In this document: positions 16,410-56,639 of the stretch, piece by piece
How the letters are laid out: the number at the start of each line of letters is the position of its first letter
Position numbering within the stretch: the stretch's first letter is position 1
Source of the DNA: an uncultured Planctomycetales bacterium
GTDB taxonomy: Bacteria > Omnitrophota > Gorgyraeia > Zapsychrales > JAHFFX01
Length of the DNA stretch: 64,000 nucleotides
Assembly: GCA_964612665.1 (NCBI GenBank)
Contig: CAZTCI010000001.1
Span: 380,896 to 444,895 of the forward strand
Direction of reading: 5' to 3'
Program-made: the position numbers and the translations under genes
Notes under the pieces: model-generated
The model's input: the letters and a program-made list of their open reading frames with translations, nothing else
Told to the model about the DNA's origin: nothing
Databases searched by the model: none

Positions 16410-16634
16410 TTAGGCTTCTAAAAAGTCGCCGACTGAAATGCCAGCCTGTTTTAAGATCGCCCGCAATGTACCTTGCGGTATATCGCCTGGATGATTAGGA
16501 ATAGTTGTTCGTTTTCCAGTGGCAGGATTCCACCAGATTTCGTGACTGCCAGCGGCTTGCCGGTCAAATTCGAAACCTAATTGTCGTATTTTTTGAATTA
16601 CTTTACGATAATTGTAGCCTGCAAGTGTTCCCAT
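16410..16634 (-). CDS. hicA: HicA-family toxin
   Basis: 74 aa; GSHEIW....TTIPNHPGDIPQGTLRAILKQAGI matches HicA consensus. Confidence 0.85.
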   Translation of the reverse strand: MGTLAGYNYRKVIQKIRQLGFEFDRQAAGSHEIWWNPATGKRTTIPNHPGDIPQGTLRAILKQAGISVGDFLEA

Positions 16635-17390: not shown

Positions 17391-17408
17391 TTATTCTCCT
17401 GATTATAG

Positions 17409-17475
17409 TTTTCCAGTTAACCAGTTTCCAGTTTACAAGTTTAGAAAATATCGAACTGGAGAACTGGCCAACTAA
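17409..17475. repeat. intergenic hairpin element with tandem ccagtt arms and complementary aactgg arms
   Basis: ttttccagttaaccagtttccagtttacaagtt...cgaactggagaactggccaactaa between BFN gene and nrdR. Confidence 0.7.
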
Positions 17476-17970: not shown

Positions 17971-18045
17971 TCAGTTTACCAGTTCTCCAGTTAACCAGTA
18001 ACCAGTCGATTTTCTAAACTGGCCAACTGGAAACTGGATAACTGG
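17971..18045. repeat. intergenic hairpin element, ccagtt x4 / aactgg x4 arms
   Basis: tcagtttaccagttctccagttaaccagtaaccagtcgattttctaaactggccaactggaaactggataactggctaa between nrdR start and glyA stop. Confidence 0.75.
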
Positions 18046-19293
18046 CTAACTCAAAAGCGATTGATATAAAGGGAATTTCTTTGTCAACTCCACTACTTCC
18101 TTCCGGACTTTGTCCAACGCCTTCTCATCATCTTTATGCGTTATCGCTTCATCAATCAAAGCGGCAATGGCGGTCATGTCTTTTTCCTTCATGCCGCGGG
18201 TTGTGACCGCCGGTGTGCCAATGCGAAGACCGCTCGTCACCATTGGCGGCGCGGGATCAAACGGGATTAAGTTTTTATTAACCGTGATCTGCACGAGATC
18301 CAAAACATGCGCAGCGTCTTTTCCAGAAATATTTTTAGGACGCAAGTCCACCATAAAAAGATGGTTGTCCGTTCCACCGGCGACAATGCGGTAACCTTTT
18401 TTCGCAAGTTCCTCGGCCAATTTCTTTGAATTAACAATGATTTGTTCTTGATATTTTTTGAATTCGGGCGCGAGGGCTTCTTTGAAGGCAACCGCTTTTC
18501 CGGCGATCACATGCATTAAAGGTCCGCCTTGAATTCCTGGAAAAATCGACATGTCGACTTTCTTGGCGAATTCTGCCCGGCACAAAATCATGCCGCCTCG
18601 CGGACCGCGCAACGTTTTGTGGGTTGTCGTCGTCACAAATTCGGCAAAAGGAACAGGATTCGGATGGAGACCTGTTGCAACCAGCCCCGCAATATGCGCC
18701 ATATCAACGAAAAGATATGCGCCAACCTTATCACAAATTTCACGAAAACGTTTGAAATCAATTATACGCGAATACGCCGAGGCGCCGGCCAAAATCATTT
18801 TCGGTTTATGTTCCAACGCCAGTCGTTCAATCTCATCATAATCTAACAATTCAGTTTGCGGATGGACTTTATAGGAAACAATATTGTAAGTTTTCCCGGA
18901 GAAATTAATTTTGTGCCCGTGTGTCAAATGACCGCCGCAGGCCAAGTCCAGCGCTAAAACGGTTTCGCCGTTTTTTAAAACCGACATGTACACCGCCATA
19001 TTCGCCTGAGATCCGGAATGCGGCTGCACGTTGACATGTTCGGCGCCAAAAAGTTTTTTGGCCCGTTCAATCGCCAGGTTTTCCACGACGTCAACGTTCT
19101 CGCATCCGCTATACCAACGCGCCGCCGGATATCCTTCGGCATATTTGTTCGTCATGACCGAACCTTGCGCTTCCAAAACCGCTTCAGAGACGAAATTTTC
19201 AGAAGCGATGAGCTCCAGATTGTCGTTTTGTCGTCGGATTTCTTTTTGAATGGCGTTGTAGACGTCGAGGTCGGTTGTTTTCAAGTGTTGCAT
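18046..19293 (-). CDS. glyA: serine hydroxymethyltransferase
   Basis: 415 aa; full-length SHMT similarity incl. PLP-lysine region [14 protein letters not shown]. Confidence 0.97.
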
Positions 19294-24270: not shown

Positions 24271-24483
24271 TTACCCTACCAAAACATATTCCGAAATAGC
24301 CCTCGGTTTAGGAATAGGAAATCCATCTTCAATCAAACCTTTAATATGGTCATTAATGGCTTTATACATATTCTTTTCTGTCTGTTCAACGGTCTTACCG
24401 GTCGCAATGCAACCAGGTAAATCCGGTGAGTAAGCAGAATAATTTTTCTTGCTTTTTCAATAACAATAAAGGAATCGATACAT
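24271..24483 (-). pseudogene. hicB: hicB antitoxin gene disrupted by two frameshifts
   Basis: minus-strand frames read MYRFL(Y) / IVIEKARK / NYSAYSPDLPGCIATGKTVEQTEKNMYKAINDHIKGLIEDGFPIPKP (HicB consensus) in three frames; extra T in ttccttTattg and missing A in agaaaaatt relative to an intact frame. Confidence 0.6.
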
Positions 24484-24484
24484 A

Positions 24485-24700
24485 TCAATCCTCCGCCTTT
24501 AATCCTGCTTGCTTTAATACGCTATTTAATGTACCCGGAGCAATGTCATGCCCTGGATGTCCAGCAATGGTTACACGTCCAGATTTAAATCGATGCTTAT
24601 ACTGCCTATGGCTTCCTTTACTGGCCTTTTCTCTCCCAACGATAAGGTGTTCTATCATTCCCAGGGAGAAAAGGCCTAGTACTAGACTTTTGCAATGCAA
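24485..24700 (-). pseudogene. hicA: hicA toxin gene with its 5' region replaced or interrupted by an ~84-bp repeat element
   Basis: C-terminal 45 aa (SKGSHRQYKH...VTIAGHPGHDIAPGTLNSVLKQAGL) is classic HicA; first ~25 codons of the track ORF (TTG start) are encoded by the repeat element 24623-24705. Confidence 0.5.
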
Positions 24701-24705
24701 AAGTC
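24623..24705 (+). mobile_element. MITE/REP-like structured repeat, copy 1 (inverted copy at 51996-52079)
   Basis: 83 bp ~92% identical to the reverse complement of 51996-52079; contains 13-bp inverted repeat ggccttttctctc...gagagaaaaggcc plus palindromes tagtacta and acttttgcaatgcaaaagt. Confidence 0.7.
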
Positions 24706-24773
24706 AGTAATTCTGACTATATACCAACCATCGCGTTCAACCCGCCTGATAACATCTCTAATTTTTATGAATT

Positions 24774-25568: not shown

Positions 25569-25613
25569 TTGATTCATATTATTAGAAGTCATCTCATAAA
25601 TGGTATTGAGCGG

Positions 25614-25733
25614 GCAGCGGGTGCACGGCGAGCCGATTGTGGGAGGAGCCCCCGGCCCGCCGTATCCGCTTGCCGGGGCGGGCACACCGGGCGGAGGGAC
25701 CCACAAACGGTTTGCCGTGACAGGACCCGCTGC
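25614..25733. other. GC-rich structured element B (possible ncRNA/riboswitch-like leader upstream of purQ), homologous termini to element A
   Basis: 120 nt, ~70% GC; termini GCAGCGGGTG...GACAGGACCCGCTGC form a 9-bp closing stem and match element A termini; internal stems (cacggc/gccgtg, ccggggcgggc/gcccgccccgg). Confidence 0.4.
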
Positions 25734-25771
25734 CTTCGCTATTTATGAGATACGTTCTAGTCTTTTATCTT

Positions 25772-25806
25772 AACTGGGTAACTGGAAACTGGCCGAACTG
25801 GCGAAC
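25772..25806. repeat. tandem aactgg repeat tract immediately downstream of purSL stop
   Basis: taactgggtaactggaaactggccgaactggcgaac (5 copies), same hexamer as the glyA-operon intergenic elements. Confidence 0.6.
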
Positions 25807-50568: not shown

Positions 50569-51969
50569 TTAAAACGTGATTGGGAAACGGACGTCCACCG
50601 TCATGTCTGGAGCATCGGTTGTAAGTCCCATCGAAACACCAAAGTCAAGCGAATGATATTCATCAATGGCCCAGTTAACACCAGTTTTAAAATTAGCAAC
50701 GTTCAGAAATGAACCGCCGACGGAATTATCATTACGAACCATCTTGGTCGTTATACTTTGATCAAATGAAAAAGTAATAGCAGTTTGATAACTCAACGCA
50801 ATCGCTGTTCCGACGCTATAACCAAGCGTGTCGCCGGGTTTAACATCACCAAAATTTTCAATATCTTGCCGGGCAAAATTATAGGTATAGCTTAAACTTC
50901 CAAAAATAACCGCCGGGTCGCTCGATTTAGCCGCAATAAGTGAACCGCGCAAACCCCAATGTCCGGTGCCTAACCCAATATCATGGTTATATGGTTCGCG
51001 TCCCGTCGGAGGTTTAACACTAAAGTTTGCGACCAAATCCGGCATTAAACCATGCTCCCAACCGATCTGCCGGCTTACACCAAATTCAATATCACCCAAC
51101 CCTTGTGTACCGCGTGTGGTTTCAGCGGTGGTTGACGTTAAAACAGTACGATCAAATTCACCGCGGTAAGGAATCTTTAACTCAGTTTGGAAATTATCAA
51201 AGAGCCCGTATTTTGCCGATAGTGTTTCAATAAAGACATCTCTCTTAATTTTTTGCACGTCAATATCTCCGACGACCAAAACAGGCAGAATACTGAAACC
51301 TTGGATGCTGATTGTGTTGGCCGATGAATGCGCATAAGTAAAACTCGGTTCAACCTGCATTTTCCCCTTGCCTAGCAGAATACTTCCTCTTTGCTGTAAG
51401 GTCCGTTCCAAGGATTCGGTCCGTTCAGTGGTACCTCCGGCCACATCCAAGTCCTTGTCATCCTTTTTAACGGCTTTACCGGGTCTCCTGTCTTTAACTG
51501 GCGACTTCGACATGCCAGGACCCACTTGTAGTCCGGGCTCGACATCGCCACTGGCAGCATATTGATCCAAATCCTGATCAAGCAACTGTCTTCGCTGCTT
51601 TTCTTTGTCGAGAATTTCTAAAACAATTTGATGGACGGCGGTTTGTAAATCTTCGTTATTAGTTTTTGATAAGAAATCAGACGGGGGGGATTGCGGTTGG
51701 GCAATTTTTTGCACAGATGGTATTTCTGCAATTTTTGTTGAAGCATCGGAACCGTGTTTGATTTGGGCCTTCACTAACTGAGGAATTTCTTGTAAAACTT
51801 CGTTGCGGACTTCTTCTTTTAATTCTTGTTTAATTTGGCTTCTCAATCTTTCAGTGAGCTCTTTATAATTTTTTTCCTGCGCTTCTTTGTTCCAGCGCAC
51901 CAAAAGAACAGCCGTTAAAATGCCAATACTTACAGTAAGCAATAAACTCTTTAATTGAGGATTTTTCAT
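50569..51969 (-). CDS. outer-membrane beta-barrel protein with N-terminal coiled coil (FapF-like secretion pore candidate)
   Basis: 466 aa; N-terminal signal/anchor, heptad coiled coil (res 30-75), Pro/Gln/Asp-rich linker, ~270-aa C-terminal alternating-hydrophobic beta-strands ending ...VRFPITF (C-terminal Phe). Confidence 0.6.
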   Translation of the reverse strand: MKNPQLKSLLLTVSIGILTAVLLVRWNKEAQEKNYKELTERLRSQIKQELKEEVRNEVLQEIPQLVKAQIKHGSDASTKIAEIPSVQKIAQPQSPPSDFLSKTNNEDLQTAVHQIVLEILDKEKQRRQLLDQDLDQYAASGDVEPGLQVGPGMSKSPVKDRRPGKAVKKDDKDLDVAGGTTERTESLERTLQQRGSILLGKGKMQVEPSFTYAHSSANTISIQGFSILPVLVVGDIDVQKIKRDVFIETLSAKYGLFDNFQTELKIPYRGEFDRTVLTSTTAETTRGTQGLGDIEFGVSRQIGWEHGLMPDLVANFSVKPPTGREPYNHDIGLGTGHWGLRGSLIAAKSSDPAVIFGSLSYTYNFARQDIENFGDVKPGDTLGYSVGTAIALSYQTAITFSFDQSITTKMVRNDNSVGGSFLNVANFKTGVNWAIDEYHSLDFGVSMGLTTDAPDMTVDVRFPITF

Positions 51970-51995
51970 AGTTTTTAGACTTATAGCCTCCTACT

Positions 51996-52079
51996 GACTT
52001 TTGCATTGCAAAAGTCTAGTACTAGGCCTTTTCTCTCGGAGAATGATAGAACAACCTTATCTTTGGGAGAGAAAAGGCC
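51996..52079 (-). mobile_element. MITE/REP-like structured repeat, copy 2 (inverted relative to 24623-24705)
   Basis: 84 bp; reverse complement ~92% identical to 24623-24705; intergenic between OM barrel gene start and C39 peptidase gene stop. Confidence 0.7.
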
Positions 52080-52088
52080 AGTAATCAA

Positions 52089-52799
52089 TTAAAATTCACC
52101 CGTATGAATCGTCGTACTGATTACATCGGGAGTCATTATGCTACGCATTAATTTATAATCAACTGAAACAAAATCTTTTTCTGCAATCTTTAAAGCATAA
52201 TCACTATTTTTGTCTTCATGAGGTTTTTCAACCAATAATCCGATGCCATCCAGCCATAAATCTTGAAACTTATTAATTTTCATCGAGACATTACCGACGG
52301 CAGGGTCAGCGATAAAAACACGGTCAGCCATCACAGCTTTTACAATAACAAAATGGCGGTAATTCCTAAATTTAATGGGAACTAAAACCGGTTTATGCAG
52401 ATGGCGCAAAAAATCAATGTCCATCTTATAACCTGTCACATTATAACCTTTTTGTTTTGCATAAGTTTTTAAATCAAATAAAGAGAATCCCCGGCGTTCT
52501 TTAATTTTTGCTAACGGCACAACTTGCAGAAGTGAATTAATAATCTCACCTTCCGAAACTGGATCATTGAGATAATAATTTAACAGCGTTGAAAGTCCAG
52601 CAGCACCACAACTAAAATCCAGACTTTGCGTAACGATGTTTGTGCGTCGGATGTCGCGCAAGGGTTTGATGTCTTTGTTAATCCGGATTCCGAATGAAGA
52701 AAAACTAATAGCCCAACTAGAAGATGGAATTAAAGGAATTAGAAAAAGACTGAAAAGCAGGAAGAAATTTTTATGGGCCTTTGTGAAGCTACTATACAT
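52089..52799 (-). CDS. standalone periplasmic papain-like C39-family cysteine peptidase (FapD-like)
   Basis: 236 aa; signal peptide; catalytic Cys context DFSCGAAGLSTLLNYY, downstream His/Asp region typical of peptidase C39/C39-like. Confidence 0.7.
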   Translation of the reverse strand: MYSSFTKAHKNFFLLFSLFLIPLIPSSSWAISFSSFGIRINKDIKPLRDIRRTNIVTQSLDFSCGAAGLSTLLNYYLNDPVSEGEIINSLLQVVPLAKIKERRGFSLFDLKTYAKQKGYNVTGYKMDIDFLRHLHKPVLVPIKFRNYRHFVIVKAVMADRVFIADPAVGNVSMKINKFQDLWLDGIGLLVEKPHEDKNSDYALKIAEKDFVSVDYKLMRSIMTPDVISTTIHTGEF

Positions 52800-52918: not shown

Positions 52919-53971
52919 TTAAGGCTGAATTTGGAAGATAGAATAGTTACTCAGTTTAAGATCGTTTGAATTGTTTACATTACCAACTGTTGAATTCATC
53001 AATACCGTTAAATTGATCTGCACAGGTACAATGCTTCCAGCAGCATTGATATTAACAAAGGCGCTCAATTGTTGCTGCGCCGTATCGGTAACATTGACTG
53101 AGTTGATGCCGCCGCCCGTTGTTGAGAACGGTATCGGAATAACGTTATTGCCGCCACTATTAGCGACAGCAACTTTAAAATTACCTCCATGATTTGCAGC
53201 TAACACATCCAAAACATATGGCGAAGTTATGGCTGCCGGTGAAGTCGGCGTTGTCGGAGCGGCTGTCTGAGTGGGTACTGTTACATTAATGTTATTAGAT
53301 GGCGCCACTTGATTTGAAGTCGCTCCCGCTGCGTCGGCAGGTAAGGCAGAATTGGCCGCGACAACATTGGCTTGTGACGCTTGAGATGAAGCTGCATTTT
53401 GAGCAATTGATCCTGCTCCTCCTAATGGAGCACCAGAAGCTAATGATGAATCGGGAATATTTGTTGTTTCAGGTTTCATAATCCCAACTGTCTCGACGGG
53501 AGTAATAGGCACTTCAGGGCCTACGGTTACCGAAGGTGTCGCATGTGCAGAAAGTGGATTTTCTACATCTGTCAAGCTACTAGCTAAACTAGATGAGGGC
53601 AGTGAAGATCCAGCTGATGATGCTGATGACGCGTTAGATGGTGCTACTATATTTGTTGTATCGGCTCCGGCTGGGGATTTTGGAGACGTCGGCGTAGATA
53701 AGGACACTTTGACATTGGGATTATTAGTGTTCACTAAAAATGGATTGTTTTGAGTACCGAGTGTTACAGGACCTTTGGTAACACTATCCGCACTAGTACC
53801 CACCGAGCCAAGATAACTATCAAAATTAAAATTTAATCCTCCCGCGTGAATCTGGTCTAATTCATAATCGGAAAGAATAATAGCTTGACCCGCAAAAGCA
53901 TAAGAAATTTGAGATAACATAAGAACTGCGGTAAATCCTAAAGAAAATTTCTTTGACGCCATTTTTCTCAC
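52919..53971 (-). CDS. secreted Ala/Ser/Thr/Pro/Asn-rich protein with post-signal double-glycine-like motif (candidate fibre/amyloid subunit)
   Basis: 350 aa; Sec signal peptide (..ISYAFA|GQ), then ILSDYELDQIHAGG|LNF; C-terminal FVNINAAGSIVPVQINLTV motif related to paralogs. Confidence 0.6.
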   Translation of the reverse strand: MRKMASKKFSLGFTAVLMLSQISYAFAGQAIILSDYELDQIHAGGLNFNFDSYLGSVGTSADSVTKGPVTLGTQNNPFLVNTNNPNVKVSLSTPTSPKSPAGADTTNIVAPSNASSASSAGSSLPSSSLASSLTDVENPLSAHATPSVTVGPEVPITPVETVGIMKPETTNIPDSSLASGAPLGGAGSIAQNAASSQASQANVVAANSALPADAAGATSNQVAPSNNINVTVPTQTAAPTTPTSPAAITSPYVLDVLAANHGGNFKVAVANSGGNNVIPIPFSTTGGGINSVNVTDTAQQQLSAFVNINAAGSIVPVQINLTVLMNSTVGNVNNSNDLKLSNYSIFQIQP

Positions 53972-54028
53972 CTCTTCTCCGGCATTAGCTGTAATAGATT
54001 TTTACATTACTTTTTCAACTGGTACTAC

Positions 54029-54058
54029 AGTGGTGGGAGGAAAAATCCTCCCACCACT
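54029..54058 (-). terminator. intra-operon perfect hairpin between large repeat-protein gene and next subunit gene
   Basis: agtggtgggagg-aaaaat-cctcccaccact (12-bp stem). Confidence 0.5.
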
Positions 54059-54077
54059 TGAAGCTCAACGGCTTAGA

Positions 54078-56639
54078 TTACAAACCGCCGTTTACCACTG
54101 TGGCCACGTTGGTCTGGCTAACATTGCCGCTGATACTGCTTGAATTGGCAACGTTAGTTTGGATCGCAACAGCTGAACCAACAGCGTTTAAGTTGCTAAC
54201 TGCTTGGATCGTCGCCTGAGATCCACCAGTGACGTAAAGCTTGTTCTTCACAGCTTTCGTCTTGGTTTCTTTCAGACTGATATCAGCGGTCTCGGTATTA
54301 GTTTTAGTCTTTGAGACTTCCTTGATCTCGCTTTGATCCACAGTTTCTTTGTTTGAGTGAGATGAAGCACTTGCATCAGAACTTGAGGCGTCTTTTGAAG
54401 CTGCAGCTGACGCACTCTCGGCTGAAGAAGATGACGCTGAAGAATCATGAGATGAAGCTGATTGAGCAGCAGATGAACTTGCCGCTGTGCTTGAGCTGCT
54501 TGAGTCACCAGAAGCTGATGCTGAAGCAGTTGCATCCTTAGAAGCCTTCAACGTTGCATTCAATGTTTTATCATCTGCCGACGCTGAATTGCTGGCTGAC
54601 GAGCTGCCTTGTGCGGCTTTACTCGAAGAACCTGCGCTAGAATCGGTAGATGCTTTGTCGCTATCTGAAGCAGCTGAACTGCTGGCGGCTTCTTTATCTT
54701 TTGAAGCAGCTAAATGCGCATCCAAAGTAGCACTATCGGATGATTTAGCTGAATCAGATGATGAAGCGGCACTTGAAGAAGCTGCATTAGCTTGTTCAGC
54801 ACTGCTATCTGAAGCTTTAGCATTGCCTGAAGCTGATGAATCTTTAGCTGCGCTTAAGCTGGCATCAACATTGGCGTTGTGTGACGATGACGCCGCTGAT
54901 GAACCAGAAGCACCGCTTGCAGAAGATGCGCTGGCTTGTTCAGCACTGCTATCTGAAGCTTTACCATTGCTTGAAGCTGATGCATCTTTGGAAGCGCTTA
55001 AGTTTGCATTGAGGTTGGCATTATCAGATGATGAAGCTCCTGACGATGCTGAACTTTCATTGCTGCTACCACTACTAGCTGAAGCTTGGTTGCTTCCGGT
55101 TGCGGCAGCTGAACTGCTGGCAGCATCGCTGTTTGTTGAAGCAGCGTTTTTATCTTTAGTTGCGGTATTTGTTGTTGCTGTACCTTCTCCCGTGGATGAT
55201 CCACTGCTTGTTGATGAATCCTGGGTAGAGGCACCACCACCTGATGAGCTCTGATTCGTGCTCGTACCCGTCGCGGCGCTACCAGTTCCCTCTAATGAAG
55301 TGGAACTTGAGGTCTTTGACGAATTTGATTGAGCCGTATCATTGCTTGTGGAAGCAGCGGCATCTGAGCTGCTGGACGTGCTACCACTTGAACTTGAAGC
55401 GGCATCAGCTGATTTGCTGGCTGAAGCATCGCCAGAAGCAGCAGATGAATTCTTTGAAGCTGTCAAACTAGCATCCAGTTTACCTGAATCATTAGCTTGA
55501 GCATTTGATTCTGAAGCCGCATCATGTGATGACGCAGCGCTTGAAGTCGAAGAATCGCTTGATGCACTTTGTGCACCGCTATTCTTGGCTGATGACTTAC
55601 CAGCAGATAAGCTAGCATCCAAGCTGGCTTTATCACTTGATTGTGAAGCTGATTCTGAACCAGCATCATGTGATGAAGCGGCGCTTGAATTTGAAGAATC
55701 GCTGGCTTGAGCAGCAGAAGCGCTTTCGCCTGATGCGTTCTTCGTAGCAGACAAGCTGCCATCGACAGCCGCTTTATCTGAAGAAGAATCACCTGAGCCT
55801 GAAGCCGCATCATGTGATGAAGCGGTACCGGCTGCGGCTGATTCAGCTGATTCAGATGATGAGCTTTCAGCAGCAGAAGCACTGCTTTGTGAAGAAACGC
55901 TTGAAGTAGCACTTAAACTAGCATCAATGGCAGCATGATCACCACTTTCTGATCCCGCAGCTGAAGAAGCAGCGTCAGCAGATGATTGTGAAGCTTGATC
56001 AGAAGCTGAAGCTGAATCACCAGATTTATCACTGCTGGTAGCCGCTTGGCTAGCAGAAGCTGAGAAGCTAACCGCTTCTTTTGAAGCTTCGGCTGATGAG
56101 CTTGCCGCTGAATCAGTCGTTTCAGTGGTAGTCACATTCTTATCAGTGTTTGTAATCGTTTTATTTGACGACGATGAATCGCTGTAATGAACTGTCAGAT
56201 CTTTGCTATCAACAACGTTTTTGTTGGTGACGTTAGCTTCATTGCTCTGCGTTAAATCAACAGCGCCTTCAGTCGCGTTCGAAACGTTGGTCTGGACGGC
56301 AACAGCGCTGTCAACGGCATTCGCGTTGCTAACGGCTTTCAGTTCAGCCTGCGCTTGACTGTCGATGACCATTTTATTTTTCTTGGTAGCATCAGCTTTA
56401 TAGCCACCTTGGCTATCTGCAGCAGCATCGCCGCCATCACTATTTTTTGCTAAAACCCACTCGCCGGCGGCAATTTCATCCATTTGCTTATCGGAAAGAG
56501 CAACACCTTCAGCAGCAGAAGCTGACGAGATGCGAAAAGCAAGCGGATAAACCGCAAACATGAGCGTTAATAATAAGATACTGATTTTTCTCGAATTCAT
56601 GACTATTACCTCTATTTGTTGAATGATGGTTAGTAACAC
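54078..56639 (-). CDS. very large secreted Ser/Ala/Asp-rich tandem-repeat protein with GG-leader-like N-terminal motif and duplicated NAVxSAVAxQTNV end motifs (candidate fibre/adhesin)
   Basis: 853 aa; signal peptide; ALSDKQMDEIAAGEW; >=8 repeats carrying [LV][DN]A[SHT]L[STK]A[SGAT]K at ~40-aa period; motif AELKAVSNANAVDSAVAVQTNV near N-term and ATIQAVSNLNAVGSAVAIQTNV near C-term. Confidence 0.65.
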   Translation of the reverse strand: MLLTIIQQIEVIVMNSRKISILLLTLMFAVYPLAFRISSASAAEGVALSDKQMDEIAAGEWVLAKNSDGGDAAADSQGGYKADATKKNKMVIDSQAQAELKAVSNANAVDSAVAVQTNVSNATEGAVDLTQSNEANVTNKNVVDSKDLTVHYSDSSSSNKTITNTDKNVTTTETTDSAASSSAEASKEAVSFSASASQAATSSDKSGDSASASDQASQSSADAASSAAGSESGDHAAIDASLSATSSVSSQSSASAAESSSSESAESAAAGTASSHDAASGSGDSSSDKAAVDGSLSATKNASGESASAAQASDSSNSSAASSHDAGSESASQSSDKASLDASLSAGKSSAKNSGAQSASSDSSTSSAASSHDAASESNAQANDSGKLDASLTASKNSSAASGDASASKSADAASSSSGSTSSSSDAAASTSNDTAQSNSSKTSSSTSLEGTGSAATGTSTNQSSSGGGASTQDSSTSSGSSTGEGTATTNTATKDKNAASTNSDAASSSAAATGSNQASASSGSSNESSASSGASSSDNANLNANLSASKDASASSNGKASDSSAEQASASSASGASGSSAASSSHNANVDASLSAAKDSSASGNAKASDSSAEQANAASSSAASSSDSAKSSDSATLDAHLAASKDKEAASSSAASDSDKASTDSSAGSSSKAAQGSSSASNSASADDKTLNATLKASKDATASASASGDSSSSSTAASSSAAQSASSHDSSASSSSAESASAAASKDASSSDASASSHSNKETVDQSEIKEVSKTKTNTETADISLKETKTKAVKNKLYVTGGSQATIQAVSNLNAVGSAVAIQTNVANSSSISGNVSQTNVATVVNGGL

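Follow-up and report, generated by a model that had tools for sequence, protein, structure and literature searches.

A TA-flanked double-hairpin repeat in Candidatus Omnitrophota, probably a non-autonomous MITE

Two copies of an 88-bp repeat are present in the stretch of Candidatus Omnitrophota DNA analyzed here (64 kb, referred to below as the window), one within a hicA toxin gene and the other in the spacer between two genes of an export locus. The repeat is probably a lineage-specific, non-autonomous MITE that integrates at TA dinucleotides and would be moved in trans, most likely by a DDE transposase encoded elsewhere in the genome. A MITE or a REP-type structured repeat had been predicted when the two copies were first recognized, and the former reading is supported: the repeat is small, structured, mobile and non-autonomous, its copies are discrete, one of them splits hicA, and there are further copies. 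The REP-type alternative is disfavored, since two of the four to five known copies lie inside coding sequence. The components of the two copies are as follows.

24621-24707, + strand: copy 1 element core, 87 nt, CTGGCC...GTCAG, with a 1-nt deletion relative to copy 2
24619-24620: copy 1 left flanking TA, placed by frame restoration in hicA (one flanking TA is the hicA target)
24708-24709: copy 1 right flanking TA, also placed by hicA frame restoration
24621-24679, + strand: copy 1 unit A (hairpin A), an 11-13 bp stem GGCCTTTTCTC(TC)/(GA)GAGAAAAGGCC with a variable loop of ~33 nt
24682-24707, + strand: copy 1 unit B (hairpin B), CTAGACTTTTGCA-A-TGCAAAAGTCAG; an internal TA at 24680-24681 parts units A and B
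51994-52081, - strand: copy 2 element core, 88 nt (unit A 52022-52081, internal TA 52020-52021, unit B 51994-52019)
51992-51993: copy 2 flanking TA, 3′ side in the element orientation
52082-52083: copy 2 flanking TA, 5′ side in the element orientation

With their TAs the copies extend over 24619-24709 (+) and 51992-52083 (-), which confirms the two inverted copies of the original prediction and takes the similarity slightly past the limits first given to them (24623-24705 and 51996-52079). They are identical at 87 of 92 aligned columns (94.6%; BlastN E ~2e-35 against ~1 Mb of sequence), and a repeat finder returns them as paired arms, 24618-24648/52054-52084 (97%) and 24648-24709/51992-52053 (95%), with one indel between. 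The differences amount to three mismatches in hairpin A (loop and inner stem), one at CCCAA[C/A]GAT and a 1-nt gap; the sequence common to both copies in the same orientation is TTACTGGCC...AAAGTCAGTA. A 28-mer of the core matches at the two copies only, with no match expected (100 shuffles), and no third or partial copy is found in the 64-kb window. The copies are discrete and belong to no larger duplication, because their 60-nt flanks are 30% and 28% identical, as in random sequence; together with the further copies inferred from peptides (see below), this sustains the earlier view of discrete elements over that of a lone pair within a segmental duplication. The left junction of copy 1 and both junctions of copy 2 recur base for base in three independent Logan assemblies. 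The copies are oppositely oriented, both on one replichore (the window has a negative GC skew throughout), and they are also opposite relative to transcription.

The organization of the element is bipartite. Unit A has the general form CTGGCC...GGCCTAG over 60 nt, CTGGCCTTTTCTC(TC)-loop-(GA)GAGAAAAGGCCTAG, unit B is a 26-nt sequence CTAGAC...GTCAG, and the TA between them creates a central palindrome, CTAG-TA-CTAG. Fold prediction gives two independent hairpins on both strands and no single end-to-end stem. The predicted RNA folds reach about -36 to -42 kcal/mol (-36.5 to -41.9) with z of about -6 to -7 on both strands, and the DNA folds -20.6 and -22.1 kcal/mol with z of about -6.4: a strong double hairpin whichever strand is read. 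The second palindromic hairpin of the earlier description is present. The 13-bp inverted repeat described with it exists as well, although it is the stem of the first hairpin and not the termini of the element, and only 11 bp of it are perfect in copy 1.

The four end sequences are variants of CT(A)GRCYTTTKC (outer, TACTGGCCTTTTC and TACTGACTTTTGC; inner, TACTAGGCCTTTTC and TACTAGACTTTTGC), and degenerate patterns for these four variants match within the window at the element only. Comparison of the outer ends, CTGGCCTTTTC and CTGACTTTTGC (reverse complement), shows a perfect CTG/CAG and agreement at about 9 of 12 positions with one gap, and each unit taken alone has good inverted ends of 11-13 bp. 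The whole element looks like a lopsided head-to-head pseudo-dimer in which two TA-bounded mini-units have come to move as one. Neither unit B nor the outer 11 bp of stem A varies among the two DNA copies and two copies inferred from peptides; the variation falls in the loop of hairpin A and its inner stem, and the ends are constant.

The core of 87 or 88 nt contains no transposase gene, and its longest internal frames are ~30 codons. The element had been described as lacking coding capacity, which is true as far as a transposase is concerned, but the 88-nt version has one open frame on each strand, and an acyltransferase gene reads through it (see below). Over positions 24702-24718 there is a 6-bp palindrome (AGTCAG-AATTA-CTGACT) made up of the right end of copy 1 and the adjoining flank; the flank here mimics the element terminus, and the palindrome is the sole terminator-like call of the terminator scan. 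This end-like flank may be a coincidence or may reflect a target preference for end-like sequence.

Copy 1 lies within a hicAB toxin-antitoxin module, whose parts are listed here.

24710-24768, - strand: hicA 5′ fragment, ATA-KIRDVIRRVERDGWYIVR-I, the genuine first 19-20 codons
24485-24618, - strand: hicA 3′ fragment, KGSHRQYKH...KAED, then a stop
24485-24700, - strand: chimeric 71-codon ORF with a TTG start in hairpin B, 27 element-encoded codons and the C-terminal two-thirds of HicA
24271-24488, - strand: hicB antitoxin gene, frameshifted at an A-run at ~24444-24456

Comparison with intact homologs indicates that the element is inserted in hicA at codon 20 and splits the gene. Removal of the core and one TA (89 nt) joins the two fragments into a 63-residue protein, ...RDGWYIVRIKGSHRQYKH..., which matches Pfam HicA_toxin as a single stretch (82.2 bits, profile positions 2-58 of 58); the chimeric ORF scores 57.3 bits and covers profile positions 16-58 only. 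The reconstructed protein aligns without a gap at the junction to 120 database homologs (70-81% identity, 61-69 residues); GSH is preceded by K in 102 of these and by R in 16. A 91-nt deletion, in which both TAs are removed, breaks the hicA frame, and therefore exactly two of the four flanking bases are target. Copy 1 had been thought to have either inserted into the 5′ end of hicA or replaced it; insertion stands, and replacement does not, as the real first 19-20 codons persist at 24710-24768.

The insertion is not the only lesion. Most homologs (112 of 120) begin with MK(I/V)RD, at the position where the window has ATA AAA ATT AGA GAT, and no in-frame ATG, GTG or TTG follows the preceding stop; the hicA start codon has therefore also been lost. 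A match to HicB_lk_antitox/UPF0150 is obtained for hicB only by splicing two frames at the A-run, and the same sequence is present in three Logan assemblies. The module thus carries three lesions, namely the split of hicA by the MITE, the ATA start of hicA and the hicB frameshift, and it is a decaying toxin-antitoxin pseudogene pair (24271-24768, - strand) located between purQ and a Band_7 gene. From this arrangement we infer that hicA was killed by the insertion and that the start codon and hicB were then free to decay. No true empty site was found in a sister strain, and the 54 related Omnitrophota purL loci have no hicAB beside purQ and so offer no empty site. The empty-site allele of hicA predicted by removal of the core and one TA is GTCAGAATTAAAGGAAGCC; models in which the boundary is shifted predict other sequences (...AGAAGTAAAGG... 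or ...ATTACAGGAAG...).

The window is rich in toxin-antitoxin genes and also contains PIN, PIN_2 and ParE/RHH modules. A second hicA paralogue is located 8 kb away (16425-16607, - strand); it is apparently intact, 40% identical to the reconstructed HicA, and preceded by an 81-codon gene.

Copy 2 is located in an intercistronic spacer, between the genes for an outer-membrane barrel and a C39 peptidase, both on the minus strand, as had been predicted.

52089-52799, - strand: C39 peptidase gene, with its stop 5 nt upstream of copy 2
50569-51969, - strand: outer-membrane barrel gene of the Phenol_MetA_deg family, with its ATG 22 nt downstream of copy 2

The spacer is 119 nt with copy 2 and 29 nt after removal of the core and one TA, and copy 2 lies beside a GGAGG within it. 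Without the element the spacer reads TAATTGAT-TA-GGAGGCTATAAGTCTAAAAACT-ATG; the predicted empty site is TTGATTAGGAGGC, or, as the 29-nt spacer, TTGATTAGGAGGCTAT. In the fold models copy 2 would add a double hairpin of -38 to -40 kcal/mol to the C39-to-barrel mRNA, and by analogy with the Correia and ERIC elements this may alter the processing or stability of the message. Upstream of these genes, at 52919-56639 (- strand), are two large Ser/Ala/Asp-rich proteins of 350 and 853 aa with no Pfam match, one of which has 144-nt (48-residue) tandem repeats (54763-55050 and 55458-55825). Encoded directly upstream of the C39 and barrel genes, they are possible substrates of the export locus.

Additional copies were sought by comparing the open six-frame translations of both copies, concatenated, with a protein collection. 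Two NCBI-only singleton proteins, P0001 and P0002, match the element peptides. P0002 is an Acyl_transf_3 protein (OafA/YrhL-type) containing the segment TGLFSPKDKVVLSFPGRKGLVLDFCNAKVS(K), an insert of exactly 30 residues (90 nt, or 88 nt plus TA) that is absent from all 40 of its 40 nearest homologs and is placed between the conserved FFVISGFLITG and RLxRFY motifs. Its back-translation starts with TTT-ACT-GGC and ends with GTC-AGT-AAA, compatible with T-TA-CTGG...CAG-TA-A. P0001 is a Peptidase_S11 protein in which an N-terminal extension (residues ~25-85), probably the product of a mis-called start, runs through one complete copy (TGLFSPKDKLILSLSARKGLVLDFCNAKVSK) and then directly into a shorter, diverged relative (IWPFSRREKVLILDFLNIGLEK). 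The shorter relative suggests, at the level of the peptide, a subfamily with a reduced hairpin A and a tandem insertion. At least four copies are thus known (four to five with the shortened variant), two as DNA and the other two or three through their peptides. P0001, P0002 and the window are likely to derive from one assembly.

The window genes are found on Logan contigs of SRR12313477-80, all of which break off within the element (at 24691, 52017 and 52056); the breaks expected from a de Bruijn model of the window with k=31 are at 24695, 52021 and 52006 instead. The stop at 52056 (…CCCAAAGATAAG) is the point where the P0001 copy (KDK followed by L) leaves copy 2 (KDK followed by V). These displacements from the two-copy prediction are suggestive only of extra copies or variants in the samples, as strain polymorphism could also produce the pattern and Logan contigs end at unrelated palindromes too.

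Beyond these samples, the exact 21-mer GGCCTAGTACTAGACTTTTGC has no match in GTDB species representatives, JGI metagenomes or IMG/VR, the left-end 20-mer has none in JGI metagenomes, and the element is absent from 54 Omnitrophota purL loci (~0.9 Mb; nhmmer and BlastN). The window PurL is at most 68% identical to that of any GTDB species representative, and its best matches are in Candidatus Omnitrophota MAGs. Judged by these searches, the element appears to be restricted to one Candidatus Omnitrophota lineage within the data searched.

How might such an element move? A transposase acting in trans, and not encoded by the element, would mobilize it, and integration would take place at TA to leave a TA on both sides, the sites in the four known copies reading T-TA-A/G. 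Insertion bounded in this way is characteristic of IS630/Tc1-mariner-type DDE transposases, which work by cut and paste. Several features are in keeping with this. First, all four copies are compatible with a T-TA-CTGG 5′ end and a CAG-TA 3′ end. Second, the target is TTAA, which is symmetric, in three of the four cases. Third, hicA needs exactly one TA to be kept, and the P0002 insert is 88+2 nt. Finally, the ends are conserved as against a variable interior, there is no orientation preference (in two copies), and insertions occur in genes. Biochemical work on ISY100, a bacterial element of the IS630 family, has shown that TA is duplicated on insertion (PMC2170065); the same is deduced for RUP, and Correia and ERIC MITEs typically show it (PMC2229807). 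A TA-duplicating DDE transposase is the identity that we infer for the enzyme from the insertion sites, and it is the most likely mobilizer. The TA repeat would then be a true duplication, which in sequence is equivalent to one element-owned TA inserted next to a TA; the two are formally inseparable because TA is self-complementary. Neither a transposase gene, among the window genes examined, nor a longer element with matching ends is present in the 64-kb window.

Elements of the IS5/IS427 group make 2-3 bp duplications, and the mobilizer may belong to this group instead of the IS630 type. A piggyBac-type TTAA duplication was rejected, as the flanks are T-TA-C and G-TA-A and not TTAA on both sides. 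An attC site and a CRISPR repeat were also considered and rejected.

It seems unlikely that the element moves instead as single-stranded DNA under an HUH tyrosine enzyme (IS200/IS605 TnpA or RAYT), in the manner of a PATE- or REPIN-like element that inserts 3′ of TTA(C) without duplication and whose hairpins are the left- and right-end recognition sites. IS200/IS605 elements do recognize stem-loops and make no target duplication (PMC2817692), and the element has two different end hairpins and no one long terminal inverted repeat. There is a T before the TA in all four known copies, so that all read TTAC followed by TGG, and the hicA frame is restored equally well when the boundary is shifted by one or two bases, giving VRSKGSH. 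However, the ends of IS608-type elements use a guide and a cleavage-site spacing, and here the feet of the hairpins abut the element boundaries and leave no room for such spacing. The antisense version of this model predicts a T before GSH, which is seen in none of the 120 homologs. The copies are opposite on one replichore, whereas single-stranded DNA transposons are usually strand-biased, although with n=2 this is a weak test. Unlike REPs, two of the four to five copies lie within genes; the symmetric TTAA is the target in three of four cases, and there is no GTAG-type REP head. Placement of the feet at the boundaries, inversion of the CTG/CAG termini and the opposite orientations (of two copies) likewise set the element apart from PATEs.

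A related proposal, which we consider very doubtful, is that an HUH/RAYT-like single-stranded DNA element targeting TTA(C) has had its 90-nt (30-codon) size and open frames selected for in-frame persistence in genes. If true, it would be a free-living Omnitrophota counterpart of the Rickettsia RPEs and would bridge REPIN-like and MITE-like behavior.

It is highly improbable that the repeat is an immobile host regulatory RNA or DNA element (an mRNA stabilizer or processing site, an sRNA or a protein-binding palindrome) that was duplicated or recruited at the two loci. The very stable folds on both strands and the position of copy 2 in an intercistronic spacer next to GGAGG are what such an element might show, but copy 1 breaks a conserved reading frame, another copy lies inside the acyltransferase gene, the two copies are opposite relative to transcription, and the repeat is absent from the 54 related Omnitrophota loci. 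Rfam likewise has no match in the window at gathering thresholds (the E-value mode returns only miRNA-type or chance-level hairpin matches far below threshold), and promoter and terminator scans find no promoter-like site or T-run terminator inside the element. Similarity by chance, an assembly artifact or a segmental duplication, for which it can be said that DNA is read directly for two copies only, has virtually no probability and is already refuted by the absence of expected shuffle matches, a BlastN E of ~1e-35, the unrelated flanks, the junctions that recur in independent Logan assemblies and the exact fit of the hicA halves around copy 1.

The preferred reading, a TA-integrating MITE moved in trans, can be set against repeats known from other bacteria, and the Omnitrophota element has no sequence in common with Correia, RUP, RPE or CIR elements. 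Correia/NEMIS repeats of Neisseria are also without transposase coding (~100-150 bp), have TA at both termini, and lie inside operons and sometimes ORFs, where their transcript stem-loops affect mRNA processing (PMC2229807). Their 24-26 bp terminal inverted repeats, however, pair 5′ to 3′ in one long stem, whereas the Omnitrophota element has weak termini and two hairpins, and they share no sequence similarity with it and occupy another host phylum. RUP of Streptococcus pneumoniae is alike in size (~107 bp), in TA insertion and in having copies that inactivate genes, and is thought to be mobilized in trans by an IS630-family transposase, that of IS630-Spn1 (PMC2229807; the TA duplication mechanism is described in PMC2170065). 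Unlike RUP, the Omnitrophota element has one open frame per strand, and there is no partner IS among the window genes examined.

The RPEs of Rickettsia are palindromic elements of ~100-150 bp with an open frame that occur in-frame in conserved protein genes and leave the host ORF intact (PMC2229807), a likeness repeated in P0002, where the acyltransferase insert is exactly 30 codons. The sequences are unrelated, RPEs are found in Rickettsia only, and a target duplication is unclear for RPEs; the hicA copy, unlike RPEs, is disruptive because copy 1 has lost one base. CIRs of Caulobacter and Brucella also have TA termini, and their 5′ and 3′ sections fold as two independent stem-loops (PMC2229807), but CIRs are without terminal inverted repeats (those of the Omnitrophota element are weak), and their purely intergenic location, the stops that close every frame and their GANTC methylation motif are not shared by the Omnitrophota element. 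The REP/BIME/REPIN group resembles it in consisting of short imperfect palindromes in alternating orientation and composite structures that are candidate non-autonomous elements (PMC2817692). REPs, though, are extragenic and abundant and come with a flanked rayt gene, whereas the Omnitrophota copies lie inside genes, copy 1 in hicA and the P0002 copy in an acyltransferase ORF, and repeat two target bases.

By the generic criteria of size (below ~300 bp), absence of a transposase gene, dispersal as copies with unrelated flanks and a two-base target repeat, the element is a MITE; its outer terminal inverted repeats are weak. No description of MITEs in Omnitrophota was found in the literature searched. 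The family is new and appears lineage-restricted, and its behavior, which is well supported, is ordinary for MITEs. It provides a clean, well-bounded MITE example from the uncultured phylum Candidatus Omnitrophota and adds one more coding-compatible palindromic element, leaving current understanding unchallenged. It also accounts for the short-read assembly breaks of this organism at element sites. For annotation there are two consequences. The local hicAB is dead, so that to annotate it as a functional toxin gene whose N-terminus is novel would be wrong, and inserts of 30 residues like that in the acyltransferase should be recognized as transposon-derived.

Other structured repeats occur in and around the window. 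Between the purL stop (25807) and the purQ start (25568) there is a stretch of 130 nt (25600-25740, - strand) with 70-80% GC, compared with 43% GC for the genome, that is predicted to form a single extended, imperfect hairpin (-84 kcal/mol, z -4.8). The stretch belongs to no Rfam family, related loci lack a copy of it, and one Logan contig terminates within it at 25709; it may be either another palindromic insert or a leader RNA for purQ. A separate short repeat family, rich in CCAGTT (AGTTTTCCAGTTAACCAGTTTCCAGT...), is present at 17407-17449, 17981-18051 and 25759-25806; two inverted copies flank a small ATP-cone gene, and the third directly follows the purL stop codon. At 1267-1386 an inverted repeat with 48-nt arms (83% complementary) and a 24-nt spacer fills the gap that separates a sigma-70 family gene from a Cys/Met PLP enzyme gene, and is possibly a further structured intergenic element. 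Logan contigs also end at perfect palindromes outside the window, CCTTTTGTTTGGATCCAAACAAAAGG about 1 kb upstream of position 1 and GAGGTGCCAATTTGGCACCTC about 4.5 kb past its end, and the genome may carry several hairpin-repeat families.
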